Shown piece after piece: positions 18,243 to 45,962 of a DNA stretch of 64,000 nt. This stretch comes from Chrysomallon squamiferum (taxonomy: Eukaryota > Animalia > Mollusca), in assembly GCA_012295275.1 (NCBI GenBank), contig CM022665.1, positions 29,884,001-29,948,000 on the forward strand, written 5' to 3'. Under the pieces are notes generated by a model that saw only the letters and a list, made by a program, of their open reading frames with translations, did no database searches and was not told the origin of the DNA. Position 1 is the first letter of the stretch, and each line of letters begins with the position of its first letter. The position numbers and the translations under genes are program-made.

Positions 18243-18722
18243 TACTTACTTTTCCTTAGCTTATGTGTATGTATTGTTTTCTGACGCTTATAATCAGACC
18301 AATAAACTGTTTTCGAGTTTTGGACTTTCACACTATCACGGCCAAGGTACCACACTTGTTAAAATGTATATATAAATAATTTAACGAGTATTTTTCTCTT
18401 TTCTTTTGAAGGAATGGTAAAAGAACTGGATGTGCACAAGAATGAATACGCTACTAAGTTTCTTATATCCCATAACACCTACATCCTGGTTCAGAAAGAG
18501 ATTTTAGCTGACGAGTCTTCGCCAGACGGAAACTCTACTCCAACTCCAAATTTTCAGTATGTGCCTCTCCTCGAGAAATACGCAGAGCTCTTCCCTAGTT
18601 ACAAGCTGCACGTGCAGGAAGTGGAAAAGAAAAAATCGCGAAGAACCACAAGCAAGTCACCGAGTCCTGCTGGAAGATTTCAGTCGAAAGGAAAAAGCAA
18701 GAGGACACCAAAACGGAAATGA
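11473..18722 (+). CDS. CXorf65/C22orf15-family uncharacterised protein, 2 coding exons, 150 aa
   Basis: Exon 11473-11614 (MFIIVKFGNNESLLCNPSCAVVNLLTSIKRRAG...LDLSDETG, donor G|GTGAGT) joins in phase 1 to exon 18412-18722 (GMVKELDVHKNEYATKFLISHNTYILVQ...YVPLL, then a basic tail). The patterns MFIxVKFG...NxxCxVVNLL, DLxDExG and YAxxFLxxxxTY are typical of this family. The intron is 6.8 kb. Confidence 0.85.
16768..16815. repeat. (TG)n microsatellite
   Basis: About 24 TG units. Confidence 0.95.
17347..17403. repeat. Compound (TC)n(AC)n microsatellite
   Basis: About 17 TC units followed by AC units. Confidence 0.93.
18187..18240. repeat. Compound (TTG)n(TTA)n microsatellite
   Basis: TTG units followed by TTA units. 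These explain the poly-Leu ORF 18187-18375. Confidence 0.92.
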
Positions 18723-19338
18723 TGTTATTATTGTATTCTTGCGCATTCACGTCGCTAACAACTATAAACGAACATTTTATGCAAAGTAACTAATATTTAG
18801 TAACTATTTTGCTGAATTATATATAAAAGTAAATTAAAAAAAAAAAATAATAATAATACACGTTTAAATTTTAAAATAACAAATAGTCAAAGAAACTTTC
18901 AGATATTAGAAAAAAATAAAAATAAAAAAATAAATATATATATATATATATATTATATATGAATTGAGTTTATCTTCACAACCAATGAAATCCATTTTAT
19001 TTGTCCATGACAATGTATTAGTTAGAGCTTACGATTAACATTAGCTGTACATTATTTCACTCATTAAAATACTGTCGCGATCGTTTGAAACTTACTAAAA
19101 TGTGTCTTTGATTGTATCTTTCGTCAAGTTCTTGATGCTGAACTCATGACCTATTAGTAACATTTTATTTATTAGTATTTTGTATTAAAGATTTTTTATT
19201 ATTTTAACAAAATCAACAAGCCTTTCTCTTAAAATATAACTGTTTTTGACTTTATCATATTAATTTTGCATTCATTTTTAATATAGTTATGTGGGTTTTG
19301 TTTTAATATTTTTATTTCTTCTTCCACTTCTTCTTCTT

Positions 19339-19370
<32 letters not shown>

Positions 19371-22300
19371 CACGTTTTTAATTAGGATAAAAACAAAATA
19401 ACCATTAAAAAAGCAAAAGTAACATAATATAATACAAGTAAAAAAAAATAATAATAACAAAAAAACAAAACAACAACAATACATACAGCTGAAATTTAGA
19501 CATGGTTAAATAAAACATGGTTTACAGTTTTCTTTATTAATTTAGTTTTTCAGCTTACCATTTTTAACATCAGGTGATCTCAGATTATTCCCATCGTTAC
19601 CATTAAGATTTACCATAAAAAATGTAGTATCATGTTCATTTTAATATATTTTACTTATTTATTTAGTTATTCATTTATTTATTGTTTTTATAATATCGCT
19701 TATCATTGAATTTTTTTCCAACTGAGTAGATTTATGTGCAGTTCAAGATACAAATTTATATCTCTCTCATAGCAAAGTGATTAGGAATTATCACTAATAA
19801 TTCAAGTGTACATTTCTTTTTTCTTTTTTTATTATTGTTATTTTTTTTTTTTTATATAACAATATATTATAATTAATTTTAAAAGAAAAGTATATAGGTC
19901 TAGGTCACACAAACACACACACATACACACATTTATTGTTAACATAATTCGATAATCCACTGAGTTACTCGACACTCTTTCGCCCTGGAGCACTTCAAAA
20001 ATTCCAAGATCGTGAATTGGAAACGTGCTATAGCTGTAGACATTATCGTTTAAGAGAAACGACAATTCCCGAGTCTAACCTGCGGGTTTATAAGACAAAG
20101 ACACTCTTAAAATTCATATCTAATGAAGGAGTCACGCGATATTATTATAATAATTAGAAAAATTATCGGCTCAATCATATAAAATTAACACTGATATAAT
20201 CACAGTCATTTTTGACTGACATAATATGTTTTATAATATTTATAAGTCCAACAAATTGTAATGTCACTTGGAGTTATGTTTGATGTCTTGTGAATAATAT
20301 AAAACGGTCCTAAAATTCAATGAAGTTAAATTTATGTTGTCACATAGTTGATTATTTAATATATCGCAGAGTACTAGATGCCTTGTCATTTTTCTTGCTT
20401 TTTGTGGATGAGAAATATTTTTCTGGATCTGTCGTACTTACAGAAAATTGACACAATTAGGAGGAACGATGACTTAAAAACTTCTGATGGTGCGAATTCA
20501 GTCACAAACATTTAACACTGGAAGATCATTTCAAAACAATTATTAAATTAAAGTTCTCTGTGAACGTAAACATTTAAAAGTAAATTTCGAGAAAACATTA
20601 CTCTTTTCCTCAAAAAAAAAAAAAAAAAAAAAAAAAGAAGAAGTAGCTTAAGAGAATAGGCCTATCATGTATAAAAAAAAAAAAAAAAAATTAAAATAAT
20701 ATCCGTAAGAGAACGTCATTTAATTAAAAAAATTATGAAATGGTAAAGCTAAATCCGCCATCTTTTCTGCTTTTTTCAGCCCCGTTGTGGCTGACTGTAA
20801 TATTAGCAGCAGCAATTTTGCAATCTAGTTTCAGCAATACATTATTGTTGTTATTGCTGCCGTTGTTCTTTACAGTAACTCAGCTCAGTTAAAAACCATC
20901 TTATCGCCTGTTTTGAATAATTATCAATATATAGCTCTTTTTCCTTCTTCTTTTCATTTTTTTTTTTTTTTTTGATTGGTCAAAAAAGAAGATGAAAAAA
21001 GAAAGAAAGAAGGAATCTACGTGTTCTTCTGTTTATATGTCTGTGCATTCTCAACACAATCCTGCAACTGATTTGATTCGATGAATAATCATATCTTTAT
21101 AACAAAAACTGATTAAGAGGTTATGAAGGCCATACCAAGTTTTTAAGACAAAACATACTTAAAAGCCTTTAAAAAATAACCAGACTGCGGTATGACCTGG
21201 TAGTTTACTGACAAAGCTTGCACGTTATGAAGTATAATATATAAATATTAATCGATAAATAAATATAAAATTTACTTAATTTTTAAAAGCCAATAATAAA
21301 AAAAAAATTAAAAATGAATGAATGAATAAATAAAATTTATAAGAAATAAAAATAAAAATGAATAAAAATAAAAAAGATTTATTTTAGTAATATGGATCAG
21401 CTGACGAGAGGTTGGATTTACAAAATGAAATTAAGCACTATGTGGTGCACTTAGTCTAAATATCATATTATTTTACAAAAACTAAATCCTTTTTTTTTTT
21501 TTTTTTTTTTTTTCAACCATTTAATAAATATAATTAATTCGTTTCACATACATTAGAAGTTGATCTTTAAGACGAAGTTTTTAAAATCAAGTATGAAACT
21601 GTATCGGAATTTTGCTATGAATTATTCTTTTTTCGCTAGAACAAATTTATAAAGATCATATGAAATATCACTGGTTATTTTAGGTTTGTCAAAACGTGTT
21701 ATCTTTTTAATCAGCACTGTAGCAGCTAATGTTTATTTTAAATCAAGGGAGGTAAATAGGAAGGCACGAAGTTTCAAGATTTTATTTTGTTTCTTATTTT
21801 TAGTTGTTTTTACTTTCAGGTCAGTTTTGTAAATTTGTCTAATTTCGACTACAGAATGCACAGGGTATTTGGCAGTAAAAGTCATATGTTGACGAAACTT
21901 GTAACCAACCTTTGTTTTTAAACATCAAAAAAAAAAAAAAATACCACGTGCTTTTCAAAACTATTTCTTACCTACTTCTCTCCCTTTAGCCTTAGAAAAG
22001 AAAAATAATAACAATAATCGAGTGTTAGCTGCTAACATGGTATTAAAAAAAAAACACTAGTATATTTGACAAGCTAAAAGTGGAATGTGGTATTTTATTT
22101 ATTACCTTTTTTTTTATATATATATTTGTTCAATTGTCAAAAGGATAAATAAAAGCAAAATTCAGAGAAAAACTTCTTATTTGAATTTACAAATCACGTC
22201 TTGAACTGAAGATTACCAAGAAAATACTTTCACCTCCAGTAATTCTCCGACTGCATTATTGGCAATCCTGATTGGAACAAAAACAGTTTATAAGCTGCCT

Positions 22301-23451
22301 TTTTAATGACCGAAAACTTCTGGATCAAATGTGATGACCTGTTGAATATAATTAAAAATAAATTCTGTGAAATACATTTATTTGATATAATAGATTTTAA
22401 TACATTTTTAAAACGTTGAAACACAAAGGAATAATGTTTGCTATTCCAGCTGTATCACTTTGTTTTTTTATAATTAACCATCACTTTTAATTTAATAATT
22501 ATATTCATAAAATTTGTTTTCTAAATACAGTTATGTCAGGAGTATGCTCTAGTATTGTTTAGGCAGTTATTTCTTTTTAAATATTACATCCAATATAGTA
22601 TTTAAAATATTTCAGTCGAACCCTAATTGCAATACCTCAAGTGTTTTTTTCGTGATTTACTGTGGAATAGATATAACTTTCCACAGCACTTCTTAATGTT
22701 TCTGATACTGGTCCCAATAACAAAGTTTTGCATGGCTATGTATCATAGAAGATTAATGTGACTCATATTGACGTCTGAATTCGCCGCAAACTAAGTAAGT
22801 AAATGCATGAACAATTACTGAACAGTATACTCAACTTACTTTTAATATAGAGACTTACTGAAAGGAAATCCGTATAGCAATAACGAAACGTGTCTTATTC
22901 TTTTCTTCTTTATTTCTCTCTGTATAATATTAACAACAGTTATTTTATTTTAGTAACTGGATCATGTAACTTATCATGCCTTGGATTAGCTCTCTGCACA
23001 AACATGCACATAGGCAGTTATTTATATTGTTTTTACTGGGCACTTTGCGCCATTAGTTACTAATTGTCGGTGCGCACATTCATGTTAAAGGAAAACCGGT
23101 AAAAACGAAAGCTGGCTTTAGGACGCCGCCAGAGTTCGGATTTTACAAAATTTGTTAGGTATGACAGCGAAATTTTAGATAAACCGTAAAGACTAAAAAA
23201 AACAACTTAAATACTAAAGCTGTATCACTTACGATGATGCTTAATGACTTATGAAAAAGGATGGATTACCTTTAAACAATAATAATAACAAGTTAACAAT
23301 TATCATTCTCAAAATTGATGATCATGCTCATGATGCTGTGGCTGTGGCAAACTGAAATTATTATATTAGATGTTATTCTTCAGTACAGACTTTTCAAATG
23401 GTTGTGACTTTAACATTTCACTAGTAGATGTGCATAGAATGAGCCTTTTAA

Positions 23452-26400
23452 ATGAAGAAACTGAAAAGTGTTTTTACCAGAGAGAAATGTGGTAATGTCA
23501 AACATTGTTTGAATTCGCTAATGATATTAACCCCGGTTGTACATGAAACCGACTGTAACATCTGATCTTTCTCATTTTGGATGAGAGGACTAAATATCAT
23601 GTCATCTCACTTGATCCGTAATCACTGGATAATTGGTATCATCACAGGGTTCAAGAAGTTTTCTCAATTTAGTGGCAGCAGTTTGTCTCCCCTCCCCACC
23701 AATACTGCTATATCCCCAAATATTTTAAGACAGTTTAGTGTGATTAAAAATAAAAATATGCCTCAGTGTATTGGAATATATTTTGATATGCATATATTGT
23801 TATTTTTTTAATTTTATTTAATACTAGATTATGTTCTTCAAAGTAGTATTCAGTTATTTAATATTATTAGGATTGTATATTTTCTAAATTTATGTTCAGA
23901 TGACGATAGTTTTAGCCAAATGAGCCAGACAAGTAAAATGTACCTGAGACAGGAAGATCTGATGTGTTCTCAGACGGTTGATTCTCAGTGTGAGGTCAGA
24001 TGGGACTGCACATCACCAGATGCCATCCGACACTTGAGGAAAAGTAAAACATATTTATTTTAGTATGTTAAAAATGCCTTCAGTATCAACATTTTAAGTC
24101 ATGCTTATTGCTTATTTTATTAAAAATGTTAATAACCAAAGATACCATAGAATATCTGTAAATTAAAGATATATAGATGATGAAATTAACAAAACTAGTT
24201 ACAGATGAAGCTGTAAAGTAATTATATAGACTTACCTTATTGCTCTGTTTATTTTTTTATGTGTTCTTCATAGGCAGTCTTAATTTAAAATTTAGTTTTT
24301 CTTAAATTAATTGTATTGGATGTGAAATAGTTTATCTTATTACCAACTAATTAATTTTAATATTGACATTTTTCTGTTTTTGATTTTGTCTCAGCTGGAC
24401 AATATATTCCTTAAAAAAATTACATAATAATGATAATAATTAAATAATAGACAGATTATATTCAGGAAGTTTTTATTATTTATCTCACTAATGACCTGTA
24501 AAAAAAAAAAAAAGTTTTATAACATGTTCTAGATAAGTGGTTCTCAACCAGTGTGCCACAAAATTTTGTAGAAAATCCAAACCTCAATTTAATTAGAGAT
24601 CCTTTCATAAACCATTCTTCCATCATTGAACTTGAGTTACAGTTGTCCGCTGTCTATGACTTGCCATGCTTTTATTTTGCAAAATTCAAATATTTTTCAT
24701 ATATATTTAGCCAGGTGTGCCGCTATTTTTTCATGTGTTCCAAGGTGTGCTGTTGGCAAAAAAAGGTTGAGAACCACTGTTATAGATAAAAAAATATATA
24801 CACACACAAACACCAATAAAGACTCTGCATATCTTAATGCTGCTTTGTTAATTAGCATTGTTTTCCTTGTTTCAGTCAAAAAATGCAGAAAAGGAAAAGA
24901 TAACATGTCAGACATTGTTCTCAGATTTTTGGATGATGTAAGTACTGATCTTTAATGATTGTTTCTTAAAATCTGTTTCTGTATGTGTCTTTTCATCTTG
25001 TTGATTACTGAAAGTATGGTTCATGGTCTTTTTTTTTTCTTTTTTTTTTTCCCCACCTGCATTATCATCTTTCATATAATAAATCATTTCTTTATTTGAA
25101 AATGTCAAATTATTTTTAAAAATCAGTCAAAATAAAATTTTGGTAAAAGATAAAACATTTTATTTTAGCATGGTGAAGTATCAACCAATACACCACCTCT
25201 GCTGAGTTTGTGGATGGAGTCAAAAAAAGAAAACACTAAGAAACCTGTTCCTGGTCAAAAAGAAAGAAAAAACCAGAGGTATTATTTTCTTATCATTACT
25301 GACATTATATATAATGGCTATCTGTTTGCTGGTTTCTGAATTTTTGTAACATAACTGTTTTATTTAGTTGGTTGTGGACTTTGGTATATAAAATTTACAT
25401 ACAAAATTCTGAATTTCAATGTGAATGAACACTTTGTCTATCATTGTACTTTAATTTGAAGATTTTGTGAATCTCATGGTTATTTCATTTACAACAACCC
25501 AAACTGAAACAGTTAGTTATTAGTTTATGTATATAAAAATAGTTTTATAAAACATTTGAAGTGTAATAATAATAACAATTTATAATGGAGACACAATTTG
25601 ACAAGACTATATATTTTTATACATGAAAAACATTTGTTTAATAATAATAATAGATTTTAGACTTCATCCATTGACAGTATAACAAGGTTTATATATCATA
25701 TTTCCAAGGAAATGTATTTGTTAAAATTATTTTCAGTACACGTCGCAGACGACGGCCAACTGGTCAGGATGAAAATGAGGCTAAAGCTTTATTACAGAAG
25801 ATGATTGAACAGTGTGAAATCATTGGTATTCACTTGTTTTTATTAAAAGCGAAATCATTCTTGTTTTATAATTTTGGTTCTAATTTGTAAAATTAAGTGA
25901 GATAACAATACATTATGGCCATCAGCAGAAACCTCTGTAATCTTTGGCATATGTGTTAAGTTTATTTACTTGTCATTTATATATTTGTAAGTTTAACATA
26001 TTAGTCTGATCCTAACTGTAATGCTATGGTTTATATTTGAAACAAAAAATAATAGTTACCTTTATTTTTGAATTTTATTTCCAAGTTATTTTGTAAATTA
26101 TTTTCTGATAATTATTAAAGTTTGAAAGATGTATTACTTTTATTATTGTTGAAATTTGATACACCTATTTATTGTAATAAAAAAAAACAACTAAAAATTG
26201 ATATCTATTTACCATCCAAAAACCTTGTAATTATAAGTTATTTTATTTTGAAAATTTATTTTTAATGTTATGTTTACATTTGTGTTTTTGGTCTGGTTTT
26301 CAGAAGAACCCAGCAGTACAAACAGGTAATTATTCTAATTCTACTTTGATAATGAAAACCTAATGCATCTGTTAGTACAAAGATGCCTTTATCTTTCATG

Positions 26401-28783
26401 TTATATTGCTCTTATAAAATTGATAACACAACCAACAAAATATCTAAACTTCTGTATTTTATTAGGATTAATTTTTAAAAAAATTTTTTAAATATTTGTT
26501 TTTACATATATATATATATACCTTTTTAAAATTAATTTATTATTTTATTCTGTAGAACATCAGGAGAACAAACTTGTCTAAAAGGATTATCAGAGGGAAA
26601 AAACTCATCAGTTAAGCATAAATCTCCAAAATGTCAATCAAGATTGAAAGCAGATCCTGGTAGTTTATCTGATAAAGGTGACAATGCAGCTGTTAATGCT
26701 AGTTTAAAAACAGTCCCTTCAGAGAAGCCAGTTGAAGAAGATAAGAAAAATCTAAGTGATGATAACATTTGGCCTGATGATGACCTTTTTGCTGCTGATT
26801 CTTTAATTCTTGAGGCAACACAGCTTCCAGCAGGCAAAAGGAAACTCAATTCTCCAGCCAGAGAACAGCCAAATGTGAAAAATAAACGGTACACCTTTAG
26901 CCTGACAGCTGATTCTGGTGGAGCACCAGCAAAGGCTTCAGTTTCAAATACTTCAAATTCTGTGCAAAATACAACTCTTGTTAAAAAATACTGTAACAGT
27001 GTTTATCAACCAACATCAACTATATCAAATACTACAGCATACAATCCATCATTACAACAAAAGAGTGTTTGTCAACAGAATGTCCATACATCAAACATAT
27101 CGGCAAAAGTTTGTGCTGCAAATAACAACAGTTGGAAAAAACACAGCAGTTTTGATGACAAACCATCTGTTGTTAGAGATTTTTATGGACAATCAGTTCA
27201 TTCTGATTCTAAACAAGGTAAACCTTCCTGGAGAAGAAGTAACAGTTTTTCTGGATTGTCTTCTCCAGCACACAGACAGCCAACATGTACAGTATCCAGA
27301 CCAGAGCCAGTATCCAACAGACATAAAAATACAAAGGTTGAAATAAACAATAATAGGTTAAATGTGACATCTGTGGGTACAACATACATTCAAGATTCTT
27401 GCCAGCCAAAGATATCAGCATCTTGTATCAGCATGTGTGAAAAAGAAGAGAGGACAAAACCACATAGTGACAACCAGTGTAATAATAATGACTGTTTGGA
27501 TACAAGTATTTCTGATGAACTCTTGGCTCAGCTAGCTGAACCAGATGAATTGTTAGAAAGTCAGCTGACACCTAATGATTCACCTCATAAAGTTTCTGAT
27601 GAATTGTATGAGGATGATCTGTTTGATGATGAAATGGATGATGTGATTAGAAGAAAAACAGGTTCTAAGAGAACAATTACCAAGTCAATGAATGCTAAGT
27701 ACAGTGTTAACTATAGTGACAGTAACTCTGACTGTGATAGAAGAAATTATCCCAAATCATCACTTCATGCAAATAAAGTTTTGCCAAAAGATTCCAGTAA
27801 CAAACTACCTCACACCAGTGTTGCTTCAAAGGACAACGTACCCTTACAAGATTCTCAGAATAGGTTTACTTTTAAGAAAACAGTTTCAAAACCAAAGTCA
27901 ACAAATGCTTCAGTAAATGACAGCAGGAGTACCATCTCAGATGTACAGTCTCAGAGTGGACTAAAATCAAATGCACAAAGCATCAGTAATGGTAAGTTGA
28001 AATACTAGCATTCATCATAGCTGAATGTTAAAGATTATAATAATTCCATTATATATGACCACTATATTTCTTTCTTTGTATTTCAGATTATTGTAGATGA
28101 AATCAACTGCTAATATTCAAATATTATATAAAATATGTATGTGTGTGTTTGTGTGTAAATTATTAATGAATACACATATAATTTAACCTACCATCATTAA
28201 TTTTGACATAATAGTATTAAGACTAAGCTTTAAGATAAAACATATGCCTTAAATTAATTAAAAATGAAAATATGAATTGCTGATGAAAGTTAATGAAATG
28301 TTGACAATAATTTATTATTTCAGAATTAGAAAATCATTTTGATCTAGATACTAACGACTCATTTCCTATAGACGATCCTTTGTTTGAAAGTCAGATTCTT
28401 GCATTCCTAGAGCAAGTTGAAAGTAAGTTTTTATATACTGAAATATACTGAAATTAATATCAAGAAAATGTTTGAGAGATATTAACATATGACTGTTTGG
28501 TCCTGCCATCAGGCTAAATTGCTGGTCTGAGCTTAATGTCATTGGTAATCAGCACACTGTATTAATATCTAATACTATATATATATATATTATTATTATT
28601 ATTATTATTATTACAATTTATTTTATAAATGCTAAAGCAATTAAAATTATTTTATAATTGTACATTTCAGCTCAGGAAACTCAGAACAGTTCACAGAATA
28701 ATAAGTGTACTTCTAAAGAAATAGAGCAGAAACGTTTAGCTGCTTTGGAAAAGCAAAAGGTGAAAAAACAAAACAATATATGA
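23452..28783 (+). CDS. ETAA1: ETAA1-like protein (putative RPA-binding ATR activator), 9 coding exons, 704 aa; a possible 10th exon at 29041-29097 gives 715 aa
   Basis: Exons 23452-23491, 23900-24043, 24876-24937, 25169-25278, 25737-25825, 26304-26325, 26556-27991, 28324-28422, 28671-28783 (2115 nt, all phases agree). The N-terminal VRWDCTSP...KKCRKGKDNMSDIVLRF...PPLLSLWM parallels the ETAA1 activation domain. The C-terminal KCTSKEIEQKRLAALEK parallels its RPA32-binding motif. The middle is one large, probably disordered exon, and SQ/TQ sites are frequent. Confidence 0.78.
24535..24779. mobile_element. hAT (Charlie-like) non-autonomous MITE, 245 bp, in ETAA1 intron 2
   Basis: TIRs (A)AGTGGTTCTCAACC and GGTTGAGAACCACTG. 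The 8-bp target-site duplication is TTCTAGAT (24527-24534) / TTATAGAT (24780-24787), one mismatch, and fits the NTCTAGAN preference of Charlie-type hATs. Confidence 0.85.
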
Positions 28784-33060: not shown

Positions 33061-33758
33061 TCAAATCTCAGTTTCCACTGAGTCTTGATTCACAGGTTGT
33101 AAATGTCCATCTACATTAAGATGAAGGATTCTGTCTCTTGGAGAACTTCTGTAACTTGGAGGGTACTGTGGTCTCATTTGTCCTGCAGCTGGACGTTGCA
33201 TGTGAGAGCTAGGTGGCATCTGAACTGGTGGAAGTCTGATTTGCCTTGAAGGAATGGTATATTGTTCAATTCTGGGAAGATCATTTTGAGAAGGTTGAAT
33301 TTCGTAACTGGGATAATAAGGAGGTGGACTAACATTTTCCACACTATGAAATGCCTTTGATGCTGCCTGCAGGTTTTCTCTGCTGCGAAAATATGGGGTG
33401 GATTCCAAAAGGTTCTCAACACTATGAAATGGTCTTGACTGATTGTTCTTAATGGATGATATTCGAGGCATAGGCTTCGGTGATTCCTGATACTGAGGCA
33501 TTTGTAAGCTTGAATGAGAGTCATTGTGCAAGTCAGGTGTCATTGATCGTGGTGCTGGGACTGGTTTAGCTGCACGATTAACTTCTGGTTTCTGAAAGCC
33601 TGGAACATTTGCATACCTAGAATCTGCTGGATGACGTGGATCTGGTGGAGGTGTTGGAAGATTTGTCTGTCTGGGAAGAAAAATATTTTCTTTTATGGGA
33701 GTTGTGGGGCTCTCTGGCTGACTGAAACTAGACAAAGATTTACGTACTCCATCACTTT

Positions 33759-33791
<33 letters not shown>

Positions 33792-36700
33792 TTCATTTGG
33801 TACATCATCATAAACCTGAGACGATCCCACCTGCCTAAGATTTCCATTTTGGACTTGAGGAGGTTGTCCTGGTTTACCAAAATTCCTATTACTGTACACC
33901 ACATTAGTTCTACTGCCAGGTGCTATCTTTGCCTTTTCATCACCGTCATCATCAAAATCATCATCAAATGTATCACTTGCAAAACCATCATCATCTTCAT
34001 CTTCCTCTTCTTCATCATAAGCACAATTATTCTGCCCTGAGTGAATTTTTCTCTGCAATTCTGGAGGAGCGTAGTTGTATCTGTGACGATTTCTCTGCAG
34101 CTGTTCCACACTTCCAGTGACTGCTTTAAATTGTTGTTGTGAAGGAATACTTTCCCTGCTGAGATTAACATCATCTGTACTTCTACCTTTCAATATGTGA
34201 GTGGAATGCATACTCCCAACACTACCTGTGATAACACTACCATTTCTTGAAGACATTTTTGCAGATGTCTGTGAGTATTCATCCAATTCATCAATTCGTC
34301 TACGTGATGCAGCACCAGACAGAATTGTTTCTTGAGATTTTGTTCGCAGTGATCGCAGGGATGACCTCATGGATGCTGTCCTCTCAAATCTTTCTTTTTC
34401 ACGTCGGCGTGATTTGATGAGCCACAGAATTGTTATAATGAGAACCACAATGACAATGGTGCCACCAACTCCAACACCTATTCCTATTGCCATGGCTGTA
34501 ATAGTGCTCTGAAGATCTGATGATGGGGCAACATAAGGATCTGTGAAAAAAAAAAAAATATCTGTTAACAGATTTTGTTTATCACTAAATACTGCAATTA
34601 CATATTTTGATTTTTAATTTTTTTTTCAATTTTTTGTTGAATCTCTTAGAAGTAATAATAATGATAATAATAAAAAAAAAAAAAAACTGCCTACTGTTTA
34701 TTATCATTATGAATAAATAATAATACTTTACCTGTTTCACAAATGAATGGATTTAGTATTCTACTGCAGTCTTGTTCTATGATGATATAGTTGCGTTCAA
34801 GAGCTGTGCACCAACCAGACTTTGTGTCACCAGCAACCCATACTTTCCTCTGAGGGTCATAGTTATTCATCATCAGTCGAAGCAAGTAATAGAGGAAATC
34901 CTGACGATTCCTTGATTCTGCCAGGAAAGCTTTATTGTCCTGGTAAGAAAAAAATAAATTAGAATAATTAAAACAGAATTTTAAATATCATTTTTACAAA
35001 AATCACTGAACAAAATTATTTTGTGTCCTATCATAATCCACTGTTGCTGAATTCTTATTTATTTTTAATTTCAAAAGACGGTTATCATTTTAGGCTTCTG
35101 GTTAAAAAAAAAAAATAAATAAATAAATAAAAAGTTTATAATACAGTTATTAGATGTATTATACCTTTGAAAAATGGGATGTGTATACAGCATATATTGA
35201 ATTACAATTTTTATTGTAACCATTATATATTTTAATTATTTATTTAACTATTTCTGTGCCTTTGTTTGATGTCTTTTGTATTTCAGTCAGAAGAAAAGAT
35301 TTTAGTATTTTTGAAATCTTTGGAATATTTTTCTGTGAACTACTACTTACTCTACAAAACTGATTAGCTTCATGGTAAGGCATCGCTCCTCCAATATAGC
35401 GGTAACATCGACCTGTGTCCAGTTTCCAGCCTGGTGCACAATTACCTTTAACAAATATATATATTATAACCCAACATGCTATTGAACTGATTATATACTG
35501 TGTGGTGTATCATATATACAGTGTATACATATGGATATTGTGTGTGTATTGTGTATAATATTTATATGTTGTATGTCTCTTGTGTATATTGTGTAATGTA
35601 TGTATGTACCTTACTGCAGTTGATCATAGAATAACATGTACATTTTATTTATTATAACAGACAGTAAATAAAATTGTTTCCAAGTTATTTTACCATCAAC
35701 AACTGATCTGTTATCCAGTTTGGGTGGATCAAAATTCACTTGAGACAATTTTGAATCATCATCAAAGTCCCAGATTTTTCCATTGATGAAACCGTAGCGA
35801 TCTGATCCCCACCAGTTCTGAGTGGCATTGATTTTACTTGCCAGATGGCTAGAAATAAATTTAGTAATAATAATAATAGTTGTTGTAGGAGTAGTAGCAG
35901 TAATTATAGCAGTAATATTAATATATATAGAGGTGGTGGTAGTAATAGTATTAGTAACAGTAGTACAGATGTAGTGATAGTAATAACAATAATAATGTTA
36001 GGATTAAATAAATCAATAGCATTAATGAACTTTGTATCAAATTTTTAATTTTATTTTACTGACATTTTAATTTTTAACTATTTATAATAAAAGCTTTTAA
36101 AAAAGGAAAAAGGAAAATAGAAAGTAACAACTTACAAAACATTGTCATCAGCTTCCATTTCAAAGTCATTCAAAACATTGAGGATGTAATTATGCATGAA
36201 CAGAGGTCTGCCACTTCCCACTTTAATAGTACTCTGATACAATGCTGTTGAGTTGTTGTCATTGAAGCCATTTCTCACATATTCCTGTCGAGCCTCTGCT
36301 AGAGGAAGGTTGTAAGCAGCAAGGATGTAATGTCCAATATTATTGGCAACAACATTATAGGTAAAGTTGACAACAACATCTTTGATATGGACAACATCTC
36401 TGAAATCACCTGTAGTGTAGTTGTAAAAAAAGTTCTGATAAATGAGTATCTTCTCATAATAATGACCAGATATGTTGAGAGCTTCACCATTTGTTCCATA
36501 AGCAAACAGGTTGTTGGTGATGTTGCCATGTAGAGCTGTAGCAACAGTTTTCGTGAAAGCAGACAAGTACATTCCACCTTTGTTTCTGCCAATGTAGTTG
36601 TGACTGAAATCAAAAATGGCTGTTCCTTGGAGAGAGATGTCCACTGTTGGAGGGGATGTCAAGTTGAGTATCGCAATGCCATTGTTGACAATGTAGCACT

Positions 36701-39700
36701 GCTGTATGTACAAAGATGGGTTGACTTCTCCAACATTCTTGTACTGAATTCCTCCATCTTCATTTCCCTGTAATACTGTGTTTGTCACCTTATGGTAATG
36801 GTTGCGATCTACAAAAAAGTTTTCAAAAATGTTACAAATTAAATTAATCATAACTTGTATTAATACTAAATGTTGCTTGCTCAGCAAAATGAAATGTGAC
36901 TTAGCTGTATTATCTTTAAACATTGTTTTAAAAATAAGATGCACATAATCTCAAGTAAATAAATGCTGAAATATTACTAAACATAATAATTAGTAATTTT
37001 GAAAAAATATTATCTAACAATATTTTCTATATTTGAAAAACATTAATACAGTAAAATTAATCTCTTTTTTATTTACCAGGATATGTTTGTCCATCTGGAG
37101 GTAGTGTTACCACTTCAGCAACAAATCCATATATCTCATGTGACATTGAGGCATGAATATGCACTGTAAGAATGTCAGCAGTGCTAGAAAACAACTGTAG
37201 AATTTCAGTCTTTGAAGAATTTGCAAAAATCTGTTTTATCAAGTTCCTTTGGCTTACATCACGGCCATCAAAAATTTCAATAACATTTCGTGAGAAGTCT
37301 TCTTCAAACAGATTCAGTTGCAAGAAACGGATTCCAACTTGTTTGTGCTGCAGAGTGCTACGAATAATTTTCACACAATCTACTGTTTTGTACGAATATT
37401 TGTAATACAAAAGCATTCTATTATCCAGACTTATCTCTTTTTCCATTCGACAAATTTCCACCAAACCATAAACATAATAAGGTATCGTACTTAAACCAAG
37501 AGGTTCAAATGAGGATTCTCTTTTGCTGGAATCTCCATTCAGAATTAGGACATTTATGCCATATCCTAGATTTCCTGAAATATTTTGGTTTTTGATTTCT
37601 AAAACATCTCTAGGAGCTATTATATCATAACCATTGGAAGCGCACTTTGTGATGTTTATATTTCGGAATACTGGTGTTAAATAGGTGGTTTGAATAGCCC
37701 CCACTTTCTCTCCATGCAACATTCCAGCCCCTTCTATATCAACATATTCCATTTCAGAATCTGCTCTCAAATCATAAACTGCTCTCTGTTCTTCCTGATA
37801 CTTCTCAGTTGAGAACCTGATGTTACCCCAGTAATTATTACTTTCAAGGTTTCTGTCTCCACAGGTAACAAATGTGTAGTTAGCAGCAAATATACATGGA
37901 AAAAGATTATAATTGTATCTCTTCATGCACTGATCAAGAGAAGTTTCCTCTCCACTGCAATAATAGGTGTACATCCAAAATTCCTTTCTGAAATAACTGG
38001 GACCTCCATGAATATAATGGTCATATAAATGAGTAAATCGGACTCGAACATTTATAGTTTCCAAACCTAGCTCTCTGCAAACAACTTCTGCTGTTTTCTC
38101 ATTGAACTGGCTATCACACATAAGATTCCAAGATTTTGATGACGTGTTATACAGTTCTAAGAACCCAGCATTTTTAAAAAGTGTTCCCATTCCTCTGAGT
38201 TGAATGTTTTTTGAGGTATTTCCTAAATCCTCAACAGAACGCTTAGATCTGAATTCAGGATCCTTTGCTATCACAGGCAGATCCATATCTGCAGATCTCC
38301 TAGTTCTAGAAGGCTGTAAAGGTCTCAGTTTAATTCTGTTATAAAATAACCCTTTTGCTATCAACCGCCCTAAAACAAGAATGCCTATATTTGGACGAAA
38401 CTGGAGTTCAGTTCCTGGTTGAAGTATGAGTTCTGCTCCAGGCATGATGGTCAGATCTGCATAAACAATGTATGGTTCAGACTGGTAAGGAAGAATGAAA
38501 GAATTCCTAACTCTTCCACCAAGCCTGCTGGGATCAACTGGTCTGTCAACTTTTTCCCCATCAGAAAGATCACTCTCAAAGTCTGCCCGTGTCAGATACG
38601 GTTGATAGTCAGCAATAGCATAATTGTTCCAATCATCGAAATCAAATATCCTTGTTTCAATACCATAAATATCCACCTTTCCCCACCAGTTCTCCTTCAC
38701 ATTCACAGTGCTGCCTAAAGAGAGAGCTGTAGTAGCTGCAACAAACTCATACTCCAAATCAGGATTCTGAAACAGGTTTCTATGAGCAGTCATGTTTTGG
38801 ACACCTCTAAAAGCAATACTGTATGTTTTGGGACTAAACTCTGAACCAGGGGGTCTATCTGCTGGGTTCTTTCTGTTATTTATCACATTATTTCTGTACA
38901 GGATTCCTGAAACAACTTCTGAGTACTCAGAATGACTGATTATGTCCAAATTAATCACATACCGTCCAATATTAGAGGAAAATCTGTTGAGTGATATCTC
39001 CATATTTTTTTCCATTCCAGATATCAACATCAGCCCCAGCCTGCAGACATTACTATCAAACTCATTATTTGTAACTTTAACATCTGCATGAAAACCAGCT
39101 ACAGTAAAAGCAAATTTCTGGTTACTGACTGCTAATGACTGATTGAATAAAACACTGTGCTTTCTTCTTAAATTTTCTTCATCATTAACTCGTGGCAGCT
39201 CCACTTCAAATCCACCTTCACCTGTGCGTTTGATTTCCACCTGAGTCACATACCAGTGCCAAACATTGTTAGCAAAGTCCACATGGTTGTGTTCAGCAAG
39301 AATCCCTTTAGCATTGTCAAAGAATTTACACTGCTGTATCTTGTACTCAATGGTGGCCACTCTCTGTGGTACTGACATTTCCTCCCAGGTTGGGATGTAG
39401 TCATCATTGTACTTAGTAACACTGGGAACATGCATGGCCTCCCTGCGACTGTGATACACATTGACCCGGTCAAACCAGAATGTCTCCAGCTTGTGTCGAT
39501 GATATAACTCCATTCTCAGATTAGAAGGGTTGTTGTAATGCTTAGTAACAATGCCCTGATCGTTGTAGTTAAATGTACAGTTCCTTAAGTAGGTTTTCAA
39601 AACTGGACTAGGAGAACTGTAACTTTCTGTTGAAGAAAACAAAATACAGATCAATTTTTTCTTTATGTATTCCATTCAGCACTGGTTAATAATTTTTTAA

Positions 39701-42700
39701 AGAAATATTAAGCAGTATAGAAATCCTCTAGTTCATTAAAATAATGTGACAATCTCTCACTAAAAGTAAATTTTAATCTGAAACTTCAGAGTAAATATAA
39801 ATATAATTCTAAATTCAATACTAATATTACAACTGTTTTTCTACCCCTTACCTGAAATAGCAGCAAATGCTAGTCGTCCTGACCTTACACCTCTCACATG
39901 ATAGTAGATAGTGAGAACTGAAGAAGCTGACACAACAGGGAAGTCAATCAAATCTCTTTCAATCCTCCAGTGTTTTGTCTTACCTAGACTGACATTAGCA
40001 CGTCTTGCATCATATACAACCACCTCTTCTACATCAGTTGCTGGACTGTAGTCTAAAATCTGGAGAGTCACTTTAAAACTATTTCCCACAGTCAACTCAC
40101 ACCAGTAAACATGATCTTCTGTGGCAGTTCCAGGTTTTGTGGTCAAGAAAATCATCTGTCGATCTCCAATAGCTTTAGTAGGTGACTCTGTGAGTGAAGT
40201 CTGCCTAGAGCTGTGAATGGAATTTCTCACTATCAGAGAGTCATACTCTGAAAAGAATGGATCATGGAGGAAGCCAGCTTTGCCACTGTTAGTAACAGTA
40301 CAATATAGCAGATCCATTCTAGGACTTTTGAGGACAATTCCATTCCCTGCACTGTTGATGACATTGGCATACTCAATGCGGTTTTCACTATATGGATGAT
40401 TGAATTTAATGTGGATGCCATCAGAAAGACAATCCGTGACATTGATGTAGGTCATGGCATAGTAATTATAGTCAATTTGAAGAGCTGGGGTGAAGTGTGT
40501 AGTTTCACTGTCAAGAAGACCAGCATTCTGTAGGAGTATGTGGTTCAGAATGGTGTTACACTGTTGACCATTTCTTGGAGTGGCAGGAAAGGTGATTCCT
40601 GGAAGAAAAATAATACCGCTGGTATATACATATTTGAATTTTTATATATATATATATATATATTGTTTAATTTTCACAAAGTGATGTATAAAAAGATTGT
40701 ATAAAGATGAGGTATCAGAAAGGGATTGTGTAAGGACTATTCTTCAATCAGTTTAAATTACAGGTCATATAATGAAAGCATCCATAAATAACTGATATTT
40801 TTATTTTATATACTTTGTCATTTCAAACAGAATTAATTTAAATTTGTCTATTGTTTTCACCTGCCCACGTTGGACTCTGACACCTGAGAAAGACATCTTT
40901 GTTGTGTGTACACTTAGTCTCATGATCTCGAACTGCTCGACACTTAGTGATGTCTGTGTCTGCCTGCTCACAGTCTACCCAGCTGAGAAACACAGGTGTA
41001 GATGAATCAGCCTGCAAGTGCTGTTCTGCTTTAGGTATATCTGGGTTGTAGATGAGACCAAGCTGCTGACAGGCTATAATAGCATTTTGTTCTGTCCATC
41101 CCTGCCATAATGATAATTACATTTTCAGTTAATAATAGTCTGGGTTCAGTTTTAGACAATTTGATAAAAGATTCTGTGGACCAATATTACAGAAAAGTTA
41201 TCAAACAAGATAATAAATGTATTTTTATTTATTTTTGTTTTAAATTCAATTTAAAAAATGAATTTTATATTGTTTAATGCAATAACAGAATAAAGTAAGC
41301 TCAAATACATGCACAAACATGTATACAAACACACAAGAAGCACTTCTTATATTATATGGTCACCTCATCACACACTGTTCCCCATTCACCATTAATCTCA
41401 ACTTCAAGACGACCTTCAAATTCATCTTTGCCATCAACCAATCGAACAGGGGCAGTCCGATTTTCAATGGGTAATTCATCTGGATCTTCCCGGAGCCTAA
41501 ACTGTATAGTATTAGCCCTGTTATAGCCATCTGCATTCAGACAGCCATGAATAACCATTCCAACAGAGTTATCAAACTCCAGTACTGTTCCTCGAGCCAG
41601 TTTCAATTGTCTGCCAGGAATTATGTAGATGTCTCTATCAACACGATACACAGTGTGAGGTTCTGTATCAAAATTATCTAACTCTAAAATACCACCAATT
41701 GTTTTTCCTCTGACAAATTTCCAGCTGTACTGGGGTACATTGTCACTCAGAATGTTGTTGTACAACCTTTCTGTTTTGAGAACTGGGTAGTACTGGACAT
41801 GGGCCAGATTATATCGGTCATCCTGGTCAAAAATTGCTTCATGAATGACCTCCTGATCATTTCCAATTAGAACCTCAATTCCCCACCAGTTTTCTTTGGC
41901 ATTGATCTCCACAGATGGATCAATAAGATGTGTTGCAATCTGTCTGATGGAGTTTGGATTCTGGATGTTATTTCTCATCAGCTGAACATTCCCAGATGAA
42001 ATGACAATAACAGCATTGGCTCGATTTCGTGGATTCAGATACATGAAGGAATCCTGAATATTATTGTCAACAAACTGATTGAATTTCACATACATATACT
42101 GATTTGAGCTCCCCTGAGTTAGTCTGACATTGAAAGCGTATCTACCAAAATTTTCCTTGAAAGTGTTTTCAAAAACGTTGTATTTCACAGGAAACTGTCT
42201 GTACCATCTGTTGACAAGCAAGTCATAGCCATTATCAATGAGCAAGGCTCCCATGCTGTGATTGGTAAATGTGTTATTAGTCATAATACCAACTGTGTTC
42301 ACAAGTGGCCGTATCAACAGAGCATGACGACGATTCGCATGAAATGTGGTAAAAGCAATAGTAAAGTTTGTACTATATTTGGTTGAGACGTTACATGATA
42401 AATACTCTATTGCTTCATCAAGATTATGCGCAAAATAACTTTCATTGATTTGAGAATGACCACCTCTGCAGTAGTTCCCGACTCGAAGACCTCGCCATTC
42501 ATTGAGCTGGAAGTTACAGCGTACAACCTCTAATCTCTGCTCAGCCTCTATTCGTGTACGATTTAGCTGTAAGTATTCAGTAATCACTCCGTAACCTTTG
42601 TTCTCAATCAGCCTCGTGTTGTTGAGAAGCTGAAAGCCTCCTGAGTATGTTATGTTGATACCACTACCTTGATTCCGTGCAATCAGGGTGTTATTCATAG

Positions 42701-45700
42701 TTACTTCCCCTGCTCCCTGGTAAATGCGGATCCCTGCTCCATACTTGTTGTCACAGACTTCACTTGTGTTGAAGAAAACTTTGCTTCTCATGTCTTGAAC
42801 ACTGACACCATAGCCTGTGTTGTTAGAGACTTCTGAATAAATAAGTCGGAAGTCTTCTTCCATATCTGAAATGTATTTTATTCAAAAATAAATTAAGCTA
42901 AAGAAACGCTAAAAATGTGAGGAAAATTATATAATAACAGAATCATAACTTTTAAATGTTTTGCAGCACACATTTATTATATAAAGTTACATAAAATTCT
43001 ATGTTAAGAGTGATTTTTGTTTTAAAAAGTCTACAATTTCTAAAAATGAAAAAGTATATGCCTTTGTGTTTCTTTATTTAACTTCAATTTTACCATAAAC
43101 AAATACAAATAGTAAACTCACATTAAAGCATACATGCATAGAAATATTTCCAGCTAAATTAGTTACCTTTTGTGGTTCCTAATTCCAGAAGCATCCGAAT
43201 GCAAGGTTTAAATGTTGAACAGATCAAATTATTTGGAATGTCCCACTTGAGACGAATGTGCACTGTTTGAGTTTTGGTGACAACTGACTGTGGAAAACTT
43301 CCATTGGTCACAGGATACACACCAATTAGTGAACCTCTTGATCCTCCATCCCGTATTTCTATTTCAGCTGTGGCTTCAGGATCCCTTATCATTCTTAGGA
43401 AATGAATAGTTACTTTCTTGCCGTTCACGGTTTTGTATTCCTGCAATAAATGTGAAAATGTTTTACTTTTATAACTTAAAAAATTGGTGAAAAAAAAAAA
43501 AGAGAAGAAATAATATATTAATGGTTAATAAAAAAAATTATGTATTTTGTTAATAAAAGTAACTGATTAAATGAATAATGGTTTAATGACACTTTTATTA
43601 TTAAATAGTTATCAGAAATATTTTTGAATAATGAAGATTATGAATAAGGAAACTAATTCACCAGTTCAGCTGCTATTTGTGACAAGAAGTAGCATTTTTA
43701 ACTGTTAAGCTACAATCAACAATAAAAAATATAATTCTGACCACTTATATTTACATACATTATGCAAAATGAATAATTATATATTTCATGTATTTATATG
43801 AATATAAGATTATTTTCAATGGTCTTATTTGAGTTTGATAAATAACTTTATTTCACATTTTTATACCATTTAACATAATAAAAATAATCTGCTTTTGAAA
43901 AATAAGCTTTATATATGTAGTAAGAAGATTTTACACAACACACACAAACACAAAAAAGAAATTTAAAAATATTCAATGTCAGTTTTAATTTGTAGGGCAA
44001 CGTAGTCTGACATTCAAGAATTCTTGTCAGTAAATCAGATCATTAAATTAAAACATGTATATATAGTTTATGTCTTTTAACTATAAATATCTAGTATATT
44101 TAAAAAAAAATAATTTAAAACTGACTTTTGTACTTTACACATTTCTGCTGACATCTTTATATCAATTTAGTTTTCATTATATTACTCCATCAAATAATAA
44201 ATAAAAAATATATACTATTCTAATATCCACAAAAGAGATTAATTTACTTCTGTCTTTTGTTGAAATCTTTGTTGTTTAAAATAATTAAGTTTTCAATATA
44301 TCACCCCAAAAATTAATCAATATCTTTAGAAAATATGTTATTCTAAAATCAACTGAATAAATAATCTTATTTTTTCTTTGTACCTTTCAGTCCTTAAAAT
44401 TATATATATATATTTTAAATATCCTATTCTAATATTAGACAAAGAAATTGTCTTACTCTGTCACAATAATTTCCAGTAGGTTTTTCTCCACTGGTCCCAA
44501 TCACATCTTGGGCTTGAAGCAATGGAAATGTCTGCAGGTATAAGTTGGGAGTTTCACAGAATGAGCTTCTGAATGGGAATCTTTTAGGGAATTCGTGCGA
44601 TGCCAGTGTCAGATTTGTCATGTACATTTTGATTCCATCTCCCCAGTTGTTGGTGACATTAGTCATGTTGACGAGAACTCGCCCAACAGTTGTCTGTATA
44701 AACATACCATAGCCTGAAGAAAAGAAAACATTTCAGTATCACAGGATTTTATTATTTGTAAATTCTAAAGAATTAATTAATATTTCTGATAATTTCCTTT
44801 TCTACTATTGTATAATTTTTATCTTAATATTTAGATCCTTATTTGAAAAAATTATTAAATTATAAAACCATTAAAAATACAAAACAAACCCAATCACCTC
44901 TGTTAAATGAAACAGTTGAGTTAGCTATGTGAATGCTGCCTTCAATTTCAGTCAAATTCAAACCATCATAAGCACAATATTTGATTGTGATGTTGTTCAT
45001 GAGAGGAACATAGGGACTAGCACTAATGGCTGCCCTTTGGTAATTCACACCAAAACCCTTTCCATGAAAGACATCAAGACCAGCATAAAGAATGTCTGTG
45101 TATTCAATCCATGAGTAACTCTGATTGACATAGACATTAGAATCAATATAATCTTCCTTCAGTGTGGAATTGTAGAACTCCAGTCCTCTCCAGTGATCCA
45201 CAGCCAGTCCAGACCTGAGACCTTCACACTCAAACCCGATCAGCTGTTGACCATCTGATATAAAATAAGAAATATTTTTATCATTAAGTTTGATCAGTTT
45301 AACACTTCTTAAAATAAAAGTAACTTCACAGTTACAGCGTATGTTTAAAACATATTTGGTAAACATTTATAATTCTGAATGAACAACAAAGTAAATGTCA
45401 CAAAGAGTGGAATATTACAGTATTATGAACTGTGACATTAGTTTTCATGATGTTAGTATCCAGTTCCTCTTAATATATTATGCATTTAAATTATATAAAT
45501 CTTTTGCGGTTTTTTGTACAGGTTTATTTATATGTGTAATAGTACAGTCCTTAGACTGATGCTGTTAGTTCATATTTTCCTATTTCTCTTAATATTATTA
45601 CATATTTATGATCTATAAATCTGTGGGGTGTTTTCTTTGTATTTTTTTTTTTTTTTTTTTGTAAGAGTTTATTCAGAAATAATACATAATATATTAATAA

Positions 45701-45926
45701 TATATTAAAACAAACCAGGCCATTGGATTTCAAACTGTGGATAGTTAGTGCTTTCATTTAGATTTCAACAGTGAAATTTGTATCCTTACATTTGCCATTA
45801 TTATAAAGAATGCTTAGACAATGCAAGTATTATATATTACAAGGAGATGCACACTTTTAATGATCTTGATATCAGGGAAATCAATTGTAGTAAACTTTAC
45901 ATTGAATTTAGCAAATATTTAGCCAG

Positions 45927-45962
<36 letters not shown>

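Follow-up and report, generated by a model that had tools for sequence, protein, structure and literature searches.

The 64,000-nucleotide stretch of the Chrysomallon squamiferum genome that was analysed here (the window) contains a gene that is very probably a gastropod ortholog of ETAA1 and that, judging from its sequence, is predicted to encode an RPA-tethered activator of ATR. The assignment to ETAA1 made in an earlier note on this DNA is supported. The protein adds a member to a known family whose route to ATR has so far been studied only in vertebrates, and because a profile of its invertebrate relatives matches human ETAA1, this route is likely as old as the bilaterian ancestor that snails and humans share. 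If this orthology is true, a two-activator design for ATR—TOPBP1 plus RPA-tethered ETAA1—would be older than the protostome-deuterostome split.

Gene structure and transcription

The gene is real, spliced and transcribed. It is modelled as nine exons on the forward strand (2115 nt encoding 704 aa, with the sole stop codon terminal), and each of the eight introns begins with GT and ends with AG, their phases (1, 1, 0, 2, 1, 2, 1 and 1) being compatible. RNA contigs from four runs, all from one study, join the exons across five of the eight introns, namely introns 2 and 3 in 4/4 runs, intron 4 in 3/4, and introns 5 and 7 in 2/4 each. The joining of these exons in RNA, on which the earlier note had staked its claim, therefore stands for these five introns, while introns 1 and 8 have no joint in the contigs of the four runs. 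Intron 6 is absent from the listed joints, but one X1 contig crosses it and has 21 letters between the two neighbouring exons. Another run, X5, was rejected as a second RNA study, as it behaves as DNA and is unspliced over 22600-24601.

Exon 2 (23900..24043; 144 nt, phase 1-1), whose 3' joint is present in 4/4 runs, holds the predicted core of the ATR-activation domain, including VRWDCTSP (aa 46-53; 23995-24018). Exon 3 (24876..24937), with joints at both ends in 4/4 runs, encodes a basic patch and a predicted helix (SDIVLRFL). Exon 4 (25169..25278) encodes PPLLSLWM (25193-25216; LSLWM is aa 94-98) and exon 5 (25737..25825) a basic run and a predicted long helix, both exons having joints in RNA. 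Exon 6 is a micro-exon of 22 nt (26304..26325), with a 5' joint in 2/4 runs and the X1 contig bridging it. The 1436-nt exon 7 (26556..27991), covered by RNA contigs, encodes a long low-complexity linker that contains the acidic-aromatic motif A (WPDDDLF at aa 228; 26764-26826) and an RBM1-like motif, DTSISDELLAQLAEPD (27496-27552; ISDELL at aa 474). A third acidic-hydrophobic motif (DDPLFESQILAFLEQVE) lies in exon 8 (28324..28422; 5' joint in 2/4 runs), and exon 9 with the stop codon (28671..28783) encodes the RPA32C-type C-terminal motif (KCTSKEIEQKRLAALEK, 28703-28756; KCTSKEIEQKR at aa 679). All motifs that the earlier note had quoted are present in the spliced model. Its "many SQ/TQ sites" do not amount to an enrichment: 8.2 would be expected, and the observed number, 12, is equalled or exceeded in 944 of 10000 shuffles.

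Putative exon 1 (23452..23491; 13 codons, phase 1) is unproven, as is the start at 23452. This segment is the top phase-1 ATG/donor candidate 5' of exon 2, and the only phase-1 ATG exon within 18722-23890 with a donor resembling the confirmed ones. One RNA contig (23172-23697) crosses its donor unspliced, and the segment does not resemble the N-terminus (57 aa) of the closest relative described below. Just upstream, 23001-23250 is the most CpG-rich 250-bp bin within 19501-24500; a search of 20001-24000 for an exact E2F consensus gave none.

An invertebrate family and its link to ETAA1

The closest relative of the protein is the product of Gigantopelta aegis LOC121372297 (XP_041354526.1), an "uncharacterized protein" with 47.5% identity over aa 14-700 of our model. 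It shares the blocks of our model, arranged in the same order, and the motif blocks are under constraint because they are far more identical between the two proteins (73-94%, with 91% for aa 27-61 in exon 2 and 17/18 residues in the PPLLSLWM block of exon 4) than the main linkers (24-31%). It differs from the window protein by another N-terminus, by an inserted tandem repeat in the large exon and by a Tyr in the RBM1-like motif that the window protein lacks. Searches with HMMER found the family in molluscs, one annelid, nemerteans, Lingula and amphioxus. Among 44 non-self matches, 28 are motif-bearing, and 20 of these have both the N-terminal and the C-terminal motif; the other 16, which have no family motif and align around the tandem repeat of G. 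aegis, were dropped. Against a profile built from 24 relatives other than G. aegis, the window protein scores 261 bits, whereas the best among 200 shuffles scores -9.5. W-D-x-x-S-P, whose conservation the earlier note had made decisive, is found in 20 of the 21 full-length members, the 21st being without its N-terminus, and the V/I and Trp at the human I105 and W107 positions, the Asp and the Ser-Pro are present in 20/20 matched members from five phyla. By pattern, motif A is conserved in 19/21 members, the RBM1-like motif in 18/21, the exon 8 motif in 16/21 and the C-terminal motif in 21/21. Word-based homolog searches found only P0001 and P0002 (2 of 6478 candidates for the large exon, 1 of 91 for the N-terminus and 1 of 81 for the C-terminus). 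The ESM Atlas gave no usable named match, structure rows with TM < 0.4 and one sub-threshold lead, an unnamed 858-aa cluster (score 0.78) that might extend the family to arthropods.

Profile searches link this family to ETAA1. Searched against the PDB, profile A5 (10 invertebrate N-termini) has human ETAA1 as the top three of its seven matches (E = 2.8e-7, 3.3e-7 and 7.9e-5, values favoured by selection because the rows were picked after the resemblance to ETAA1 had been observed), and the next, unrelated match has E = 1.6. The alignment is collinear over ~145 residues (human 62-206, within an ATR-activation domain of residues ~56-220) and includes all four ATR-contact elements. An abalone N-terminus alone also has human ETAA1 as its top two PDB matches (E = 0.026 and 0.038), and its top Pfam match is the ETAA1 entry PF15350 (E = 1.4e-5, profile positions 17-66). 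At the other end, seven of nine C-terminal fragments match PF15350 positions 794-817 of 818, below the gathering cut-off of 27 bits, which no sequence reached (best 24.0 bits, for an abalone protein fragment). PF15350 was matched at all by only 2/27 full-length relatives and 2/7 N-terminal fragments. The window exons themselves have no Pfam match (0/7), and the last exon did not retrieve ETAA1 from the PDB; nor did the G. aegis full protein or its N-terminus, and the two closest relatives have no Pfam match. The link to ETAA1 therefore runs through relatives. Overall, ETAA1 appeared in only three of ten PDB searches, and profiles A1, A2, A3 and A4 also failed to retrieve it. The RBM1-like profile retrieved no ETAA1 chain from the PDB, and Pfam gave 0/15 matches for motif A and RBM1-like fragments. 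With the C-terminal motif profile, PDB matches were weak, TIPIN 203-219 (E = 0.29) coming first and the SMARCAL1 peptide of 4MQV having E = 4.4. The match to an ETAA1 profile that the earlier note had anticipated is thus borne out by the N- and C-termini of relatives and not by the window's own exons, and the human activation-domain motifs that it had listed are indeed present in the PDB chains.

The A5 result also agrees with the earlier proposal that ETAA1 may predate vertebrates. To say that ETAA1 is usually described as vertebrate-specific was an overstatement. One of the 20 relatives looked up in UniRef, a mollusc protein of the same family with the same motif order, is already named ETAA1 there (NCBI calls the same protein hypothetical); the others are unnamed or misnamed, and the misnomers in invertebrate genomes include mucin-like and serine-rich adhesin-like. 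In many invertebrate genomes, the ETAA1-family gene has gone unrecognised. Full-text literature searches, judged by titles and abstract openings, found no description of an invertebrate ETAA1.

Conserved and lost residues of the activation domain

The comparison with vertebrate ETAA1 (human; PF15350; PDB 9ZD3, 9ZD4, 13DE and 23FE), in which three helical elements come after I/V-x-W-D-x-x-S-P, ordered as they are here, can be made residue by residue. Aligned through relatives, human I105, F106, W107, D108, S111 and P112 correspond to V46, R47, W48, D49, S52 and P53. V46-R47-W48, which includes the counterpart of the essential Trp107, corresponds to the FAT-binding strand, in which Ile105 and Trp107 are the residues packing on FAT according to PMC13468113. 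S52-P53 is, by sequence, the counterpart of the CDK site Ser111-Pro112. The second CDK site, Ser95-Pro96, has no counterpart; one residue later there is S37-Q38, ATR-type rather than CDK-type, and in the family Ser is found at that site in 17/20 and Gln in 14/20. Phe106 is replaced by Arg, as the earlier note had said, and its position is occupied by G (8), R (7), K (2), A, H or V among 20 members, with Phe in 0/20. Phe106 may not be a defining feature of ETAA1, because it was mutated only jointly with W107 in the passage considered from PMC6891097 and is mentioned nowhere in the main text of the cryo-EM study (PMC13468113). At the position of Phe198, which in the human structure inserts in an ATR pocket from helix e-alpha3, the family consensus and amphioxus have Leu, and G. 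aegis and the window protein have Ile, as read from alignment A5 with a 3-residue gap there.

The three helices also have counterparts. SDIVLRFL in exon 3 aligns, through relatives, with human e-alpha1 (ISHIVNRIA), PPLLSLWM in exon 4 with human MLDMW, likely helix e-alpha2, and the basic run and long helix of exon 5 with e-alpha3. AlphaFold predicts helices in a G. aegis fragment (H48-57, H69-82 and H108-129; mean pLDDT 66) where e-alpha1, 2 and 3 align, and the predicted exon 5 helix has high pLDDT. The Gly-Lys-Gly that ends the human helix after S111-P112 is usually missing in the family (Gly in that stretch in 4/21), and the prediction for it is a helix of 14 residues. Here the Trp is encoded by a second exon that keeps the frame (144 nt), as it is in human ETAA1, where targeting exon 2 removes the Trp region in frame (PMC6446857).

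By analogy with human data, on which each step is modelled, the N-terminal domain would clasp ATR via four elements, with the V46-x-W48 strand sitting on the FAT domain and the three helices providing the others, and CDK phosphorylation of S52-P53 in S/G2 would likely increase activity. RPA binding is expected on similar grounds. Human ETAA1 ends in an RPA32C motif of the UNG2/XPA/SMARCAL1/TIPIN type, as the window protein appears to. The D-[DE]-L-L-x-Q-L-A motif of exon 7 resembles by eye the RPA70N-binding RBM1, with no match in Pfam or the PDB. The residues of RBM1 include W600, D606, D607, L609, L610 and Y611 (PMC10479964), and its possible counterparts, by eye, include L-L-Y-Q in G. aegis and, in Lingula and Tubulanus, a W that precedes the motif by nine residues; in the window protein both aromatics are lost, W600 being Cys/Leu and Y611 Ala. 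The invertebrate alignment amounts to a natural mutational scan of an activation domain recently solved by cryo-EM, in which I/V-x-W-D-x-x-S-P and three helices are retained, and F106, F198 and S95-P are dropped. This pattern allows one to test directly which residues matter and why unphosphorylated human ETAA1 activates weakly.

Alternative readings and relation to other ATR and RPA partners

That the motifs arose from stitching together unrelated small open segments has virtually no credence left. In the runs used, no RNA joint reaches exon 1 or spans intron 8, and the RNA support comes from one study, but the joints at five introns and the G. aegis protein refute such an artefact for exons 2-8. 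It is very improbable that the protein is unrelated to ETAA1, a disordered chain independently assembled from common short motifs such as a TOPBP1-like I-x-W-D strand and a TIPIN/SMARCAL1/XPA-type RPA32C helix. The RPA32C motif is common to unrelated proteins (bioRxiv 2022.08.08.503141), TIPIN comes first with the C-terminal profile and the window protein has no ETAA1 match of its own. Yet independent assembly would have to produce four separate elements in collinear order and ends that each match the corresponding end of PF15350, and amphioxus links the invertebrate family to vertebrate ETAA1. No TOPBP1 chain is among the seven matches of A5, although the TOPBP1 activation domain is perhaps absent from that copy of the PDB.

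Two other readings accept the orthology. A protein that binds RPA and ATR with weak or no activation of ATR—an RPA-bound scaffold or a competitor of TOPBP1—is quite unlikely. It would fit the Leu/Ile at the Phe198 position and the G/R/K at that of Phe106, and the unphosphorylated human domain gives only ~5-fold activation and competes with TOPBP1, according to PMC13468113. Nevertheless, the Phe198 position is still hydrophobic, and none of the 20 matched members has lost the Trp, the Ile/Val, the Asp or the Ser-Pro switch. Conversely, and tentatively, since we consider it unlikely, invertebrate ETAA1 could be an ancestral, more TOPBP1-like activator from which the vertebrate protein derives in weakened, CDK-gated form, and arthropods might also have the family. 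The Trp strand would then run directly into the long helix, with no Gly-Lys-Gly break, which could couple FAT to N-heat/M-heat like the strand-helix unit of TOPBP1 and make the activator stronger or less phosphorylation-dependent than vertebrate ETAA1, and the S-Q replacing S95-P would allow direct feedback from ATR.

An RPA-tethered ETAA1 ortholog remains our preferred reading, and the window protein differs from other partners of ATR and RPA. TIPIN, SMARCAL1, XPA and UNG2 share the type of its C-terminal motif, but they contain folded domains, none of which was detected in the window protein. The ATR-activation domain of TOPBP1 resembles it in placing an I-x-W strand (Ile1143/Trp1145; PMC13468113) on the FAT domain. 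Unlike the window protein, TOPBP1 has multiple BRCT domains, is recruited by 9-1-1 and carries its elements in reversed order; Pfam found no BRCT domain in the window exons or the G. aegis protein. Compared with vertebrate ETAA1, the window protein is the shorter one (704 aa); beyond the N-terminal elements, the two have in common a long low-complexity linker, an RPA32C-type motif at the C-terminus and, by eye, a central acidic D-x-L-L motif.

A spliced gene and its surroundings

The gene at 23452-28783 (+), modeled from a reading of the window sequence and scripted splice-site tests, comprises nine exons: exon 1, 23452-23491; exon 2, 23900-24043; exon 3, 24876-24937; exon 4, 25169-25278; exon 5, 25737-25825; exon 6, 26304-26325; exon 7, 26556-27991; exon 8, 28324-28422; and exon 9, 28671-28783, all on the + strand. 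All eight introns have GT..AG ends and compatible phases, and the 2115-nt frame encodes 704 residues with a single stop, at its end. The motifs quoted in the earlier note are all present in this spliced frame; the "many SQ/TQ sites" it reported represent no enrichment (12 versus 8.2 expected, with 944 of 10,000 shuffles reaching 12). Its joining of the exons is borne out in RNA contigs from one study for introns 2 and 3 (4/4 runs each), intron 4 (3/4), and introns 5 and 7 (2/4 each), but not for introns 1 and 8, which have no joint in contigs from these four runs. Intron 6 is spanned by one RNA contig, the joint itself not being listed. X5, a run from a second study that behaves as DNA, shows no splicing across 22600-24601 and adds no RNA support. 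Exon 1 is unproven: among four listed candidates, it is the sole phase-1 one with a donor resembling the confirmed donors, and the most CpG-rich bin lies just upstream, but its donor is crossed unspliced by an RNA contig and its peptide does not resemble the N terminus of the Gigantopelta aegis relative described below.

At position 27795, contigs from RNA runs X1 and X3 join the gene to an identical foreign stretch of at least 255 letters, perhaps another transcript matching here by chance. Intron 2 harbors a short element (24520-24790) flanked by terminal inverted repeats, at about 24537 and 24766. Its depth in X5 is thousands-fold, and it is probably a high-copy MITE, with presumably hAT-like ends. 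Upstream lie an exon at 313-675 with no Pfam match, presumably resembling ATP synthase subunit s-like/DMAC2, and the last exon of a neighbor at 18363-18722 (PF15874, 26.3 bits, just below cut-off). Downstream, a large multi-exon gene at 33061-50392 (-), whose product combines SRCR and beta-helix domains with a membrane-spanning C-terminal part, presumably resembles protein bark beetle. Exons with Pfam Tex_N and HHH_9 domains at 53494-62716 (+) likely belong to SRBD1, which in humans we take to lie on 2p, as does ETAA1. A short open frame at 58980-59381 (-) presumably resembles the N-terminal helix-turn-helix of Tigger/CENP-B-type transposases.

An invertebrate family and its link to ETAA1

With the large exon as query, two proteins were recovered among 6478 candidates. 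XP_041354526.1 from the neomphalid gastropod G. aegis, uncharacterized in RefSeq, is 47.5% identical to the window protein across model residues 14-700, with 73-94% identity in motif blocks and 24-31% in the main linkers; this similarity probably places the window in a related gastropod. HMMER with this protein gave 46 matches at E ≤ 0.001; beyond the two proteins already known, 28 carry family motifs (20 of them both terminal motifs) and 16 carry none. The latter were dropped because they align around the tandem repeat of the query, an expansion in the large exon seen in G. aegis (approximately residues 350-435) and in an ENA relative, P0002, and absent from the window. Of 20 matches looked up, 18 carry source names, which cover gastropods, bivalves, the annelid Owenia, two nemerteans, Lingula, and amphioxus. 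One ortholog already carries the ETAA1 name in a database, the others being uncharacterized, hypothetical, or wrongly named (mucin-5AC-like, serine-rich adhesin-like, micronuclear linker histone polyprotein-like). Against a profile built from 24 relatives other than G. aegis, the window protein reaches 261 bits (best of 200 shuffles, -9.5).

The link from the window protein to ETAA1 runs via these relatives, as judged by profile comparison. Neither the window exons nor the G. aegis protein matches PF15350, the Pfam ETAA1 profile, or PDB ETAA1 chains. The Pfam search proposed in the earlier note gave matches for relatives only, and no full-length relative or fragment attains the 27-bit cut-off. 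PF15350 is weakly matched by 2/27 full-length relatives (one at either end), by 2/7 N-terminal fragments (abalone, E 1.4e-5, 24.0 bits, profile 17-66; amphioxus, E 0.1), by 7/9 C-terminal fragments (positions 794-817 of 818, E 7.3e-5 to 0.03), and no Pfam match was found for 15 middle-motif fragments. ETAA1 was recovered in 3/10 PDB searches. Human ETAA1 ranks first and second with the abalone N terminus (E 0.026, 0.038), and the amphioxus fragment aligns to human residues 99-195 (E 0.02), one unrelated match ranking higher. Profile A5, built from 10 invertebrate N termini, places human ETAA1 chains in the top three positions (E 2.8e-7, 3.3e-7, 7.9e-5; next match 1.6), with a collinear alignment over human residues 62-206, which supports the identity originally proposed. 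The A5 rows were chosen once it was known which rows resemble ETAA1, although every one was originally found from G. aegis without ETAA1 input. No ETAA1 match in the PDB was obtained with A1 or A2, which are full-length and mixed profiles. The C-terminal profile has eight PDB matches, two of which, TIPIN (E 0.29) and a SMARCAL1 peptide in 4MQV (E 4.4), weakly point to the motif class expected for an ETAA1-type C terminus.

These comparisons support reading the gene as a further member of the already known ETAA1 family and likely date ETAA1 to the bilaterian ancestor. Our full-text literature search found no description of invertebrate ETAA1; the 2016 discovery papers, Thada 2019, and supplements lay outside its scope and could hold invertebrate alignments. 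Consulted passages of PMC6527274, PMC6990542, PMC6563053, PMC8210275, PMC7913698, and bioRxiv 2022.08.08.503141 add nothing on taxonomic range. Some bivalves carry repeated RPA32C-type C-terminal motifs (four copies in P0021 from Argopecten, three in P0013, two in P0025 from Mytilus), which suggests multivalent RPA binding. In the ESM Atlas, the top feature match of the N terminus is a eukaryotic cluster (858 residues, 72 members, mostly Arthropoda), a possible lead to an arthropod ETAA1 whose score of 0.78 is below the tool's reliability bar.

Predicted activation and RPA binding compared with human ETAA1

The gene, its transcript, and its homology are demonstrated here. By analogy with human ETAA1, from which we infer binding, phosphorylation, and activation, the window protein would most likely be an RPA-tethered, CDK-tuned ATR activator. 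Convergent assembly of its motifs is unlikely because the N-terminal match to human ETAA1 is collinear and the agreement extends to both protein ends. The main alternative, an ortholog able to bind ATR yet barely activating it, is favored by the loss of Phe198, which inserts into an ATR pocket in the human complex (PMC13468113) and is replaced by Leu in the invertebrate consensus and by Ile in the clade of the window and G. aegis proteins. The invertebrate sequences show which activation-domain residues can vary.

RPA70N binding by human ETAA1 involves RBM1 residues W600, D606, D607, L609, L610, Y611, and A613 (PMC10479964). The family motif D-[DE]-L-L-x-Q-L-A fits RBM1 by eye only, profile searches of Pfam and the PDB giving no support for a match. 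Both human aromatics are absent from the window protein, whereas G. aegis has the Tyr, and Lingula and Tubulanus have a Trp at matching distance. Two additional conserved acidic-aromatic motifs at 26764-26826 and 28356-28421, with patterns in 19/21 and 16/21 members, are candidate further ligands of RPA70N-type or other basic clefts.

In PMC13468113, a cryo-EM study, the human domain contacts ATR through three helices and through one strand whose Ile105 and Trp107 pack on FAT. W-D-x-x-S-P, expected in relatives by the earlier note, occurs in 20/21 full-length members, which this same pattern had selected. A V/I lies two residues N-terminal of the Trp in all 20 matched members, whereas the residue preceding the Trp, Phe106 in human, is never Phe. 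S95 and S111 are CDK sites in human ETAA1 (PMC6891097); in place of S95-P, the family has S-Q one position later (S 17/20, Q 14/20). An AlphaFold model of the G. aegis fragment, with a mean pLDDT of 66 and a pTM of 0.24, has helices where the three human ones would be expected and an extra 14-residue helix from the Pro of S-P. In human ETAA1, S111D orders a short helix, P112-L117, ending at Gly-Lys-Gly (PMC13468113), whereas only 4/21 family members have Gly in the matching stretch. Finally, the Trp codon of the window gene lies in a second exon of 144 nt with phase 1-1, which agrees, as weak support, with human ETAA1, where targeting exon 2 removes the Trp region in frame (PMC6446857).
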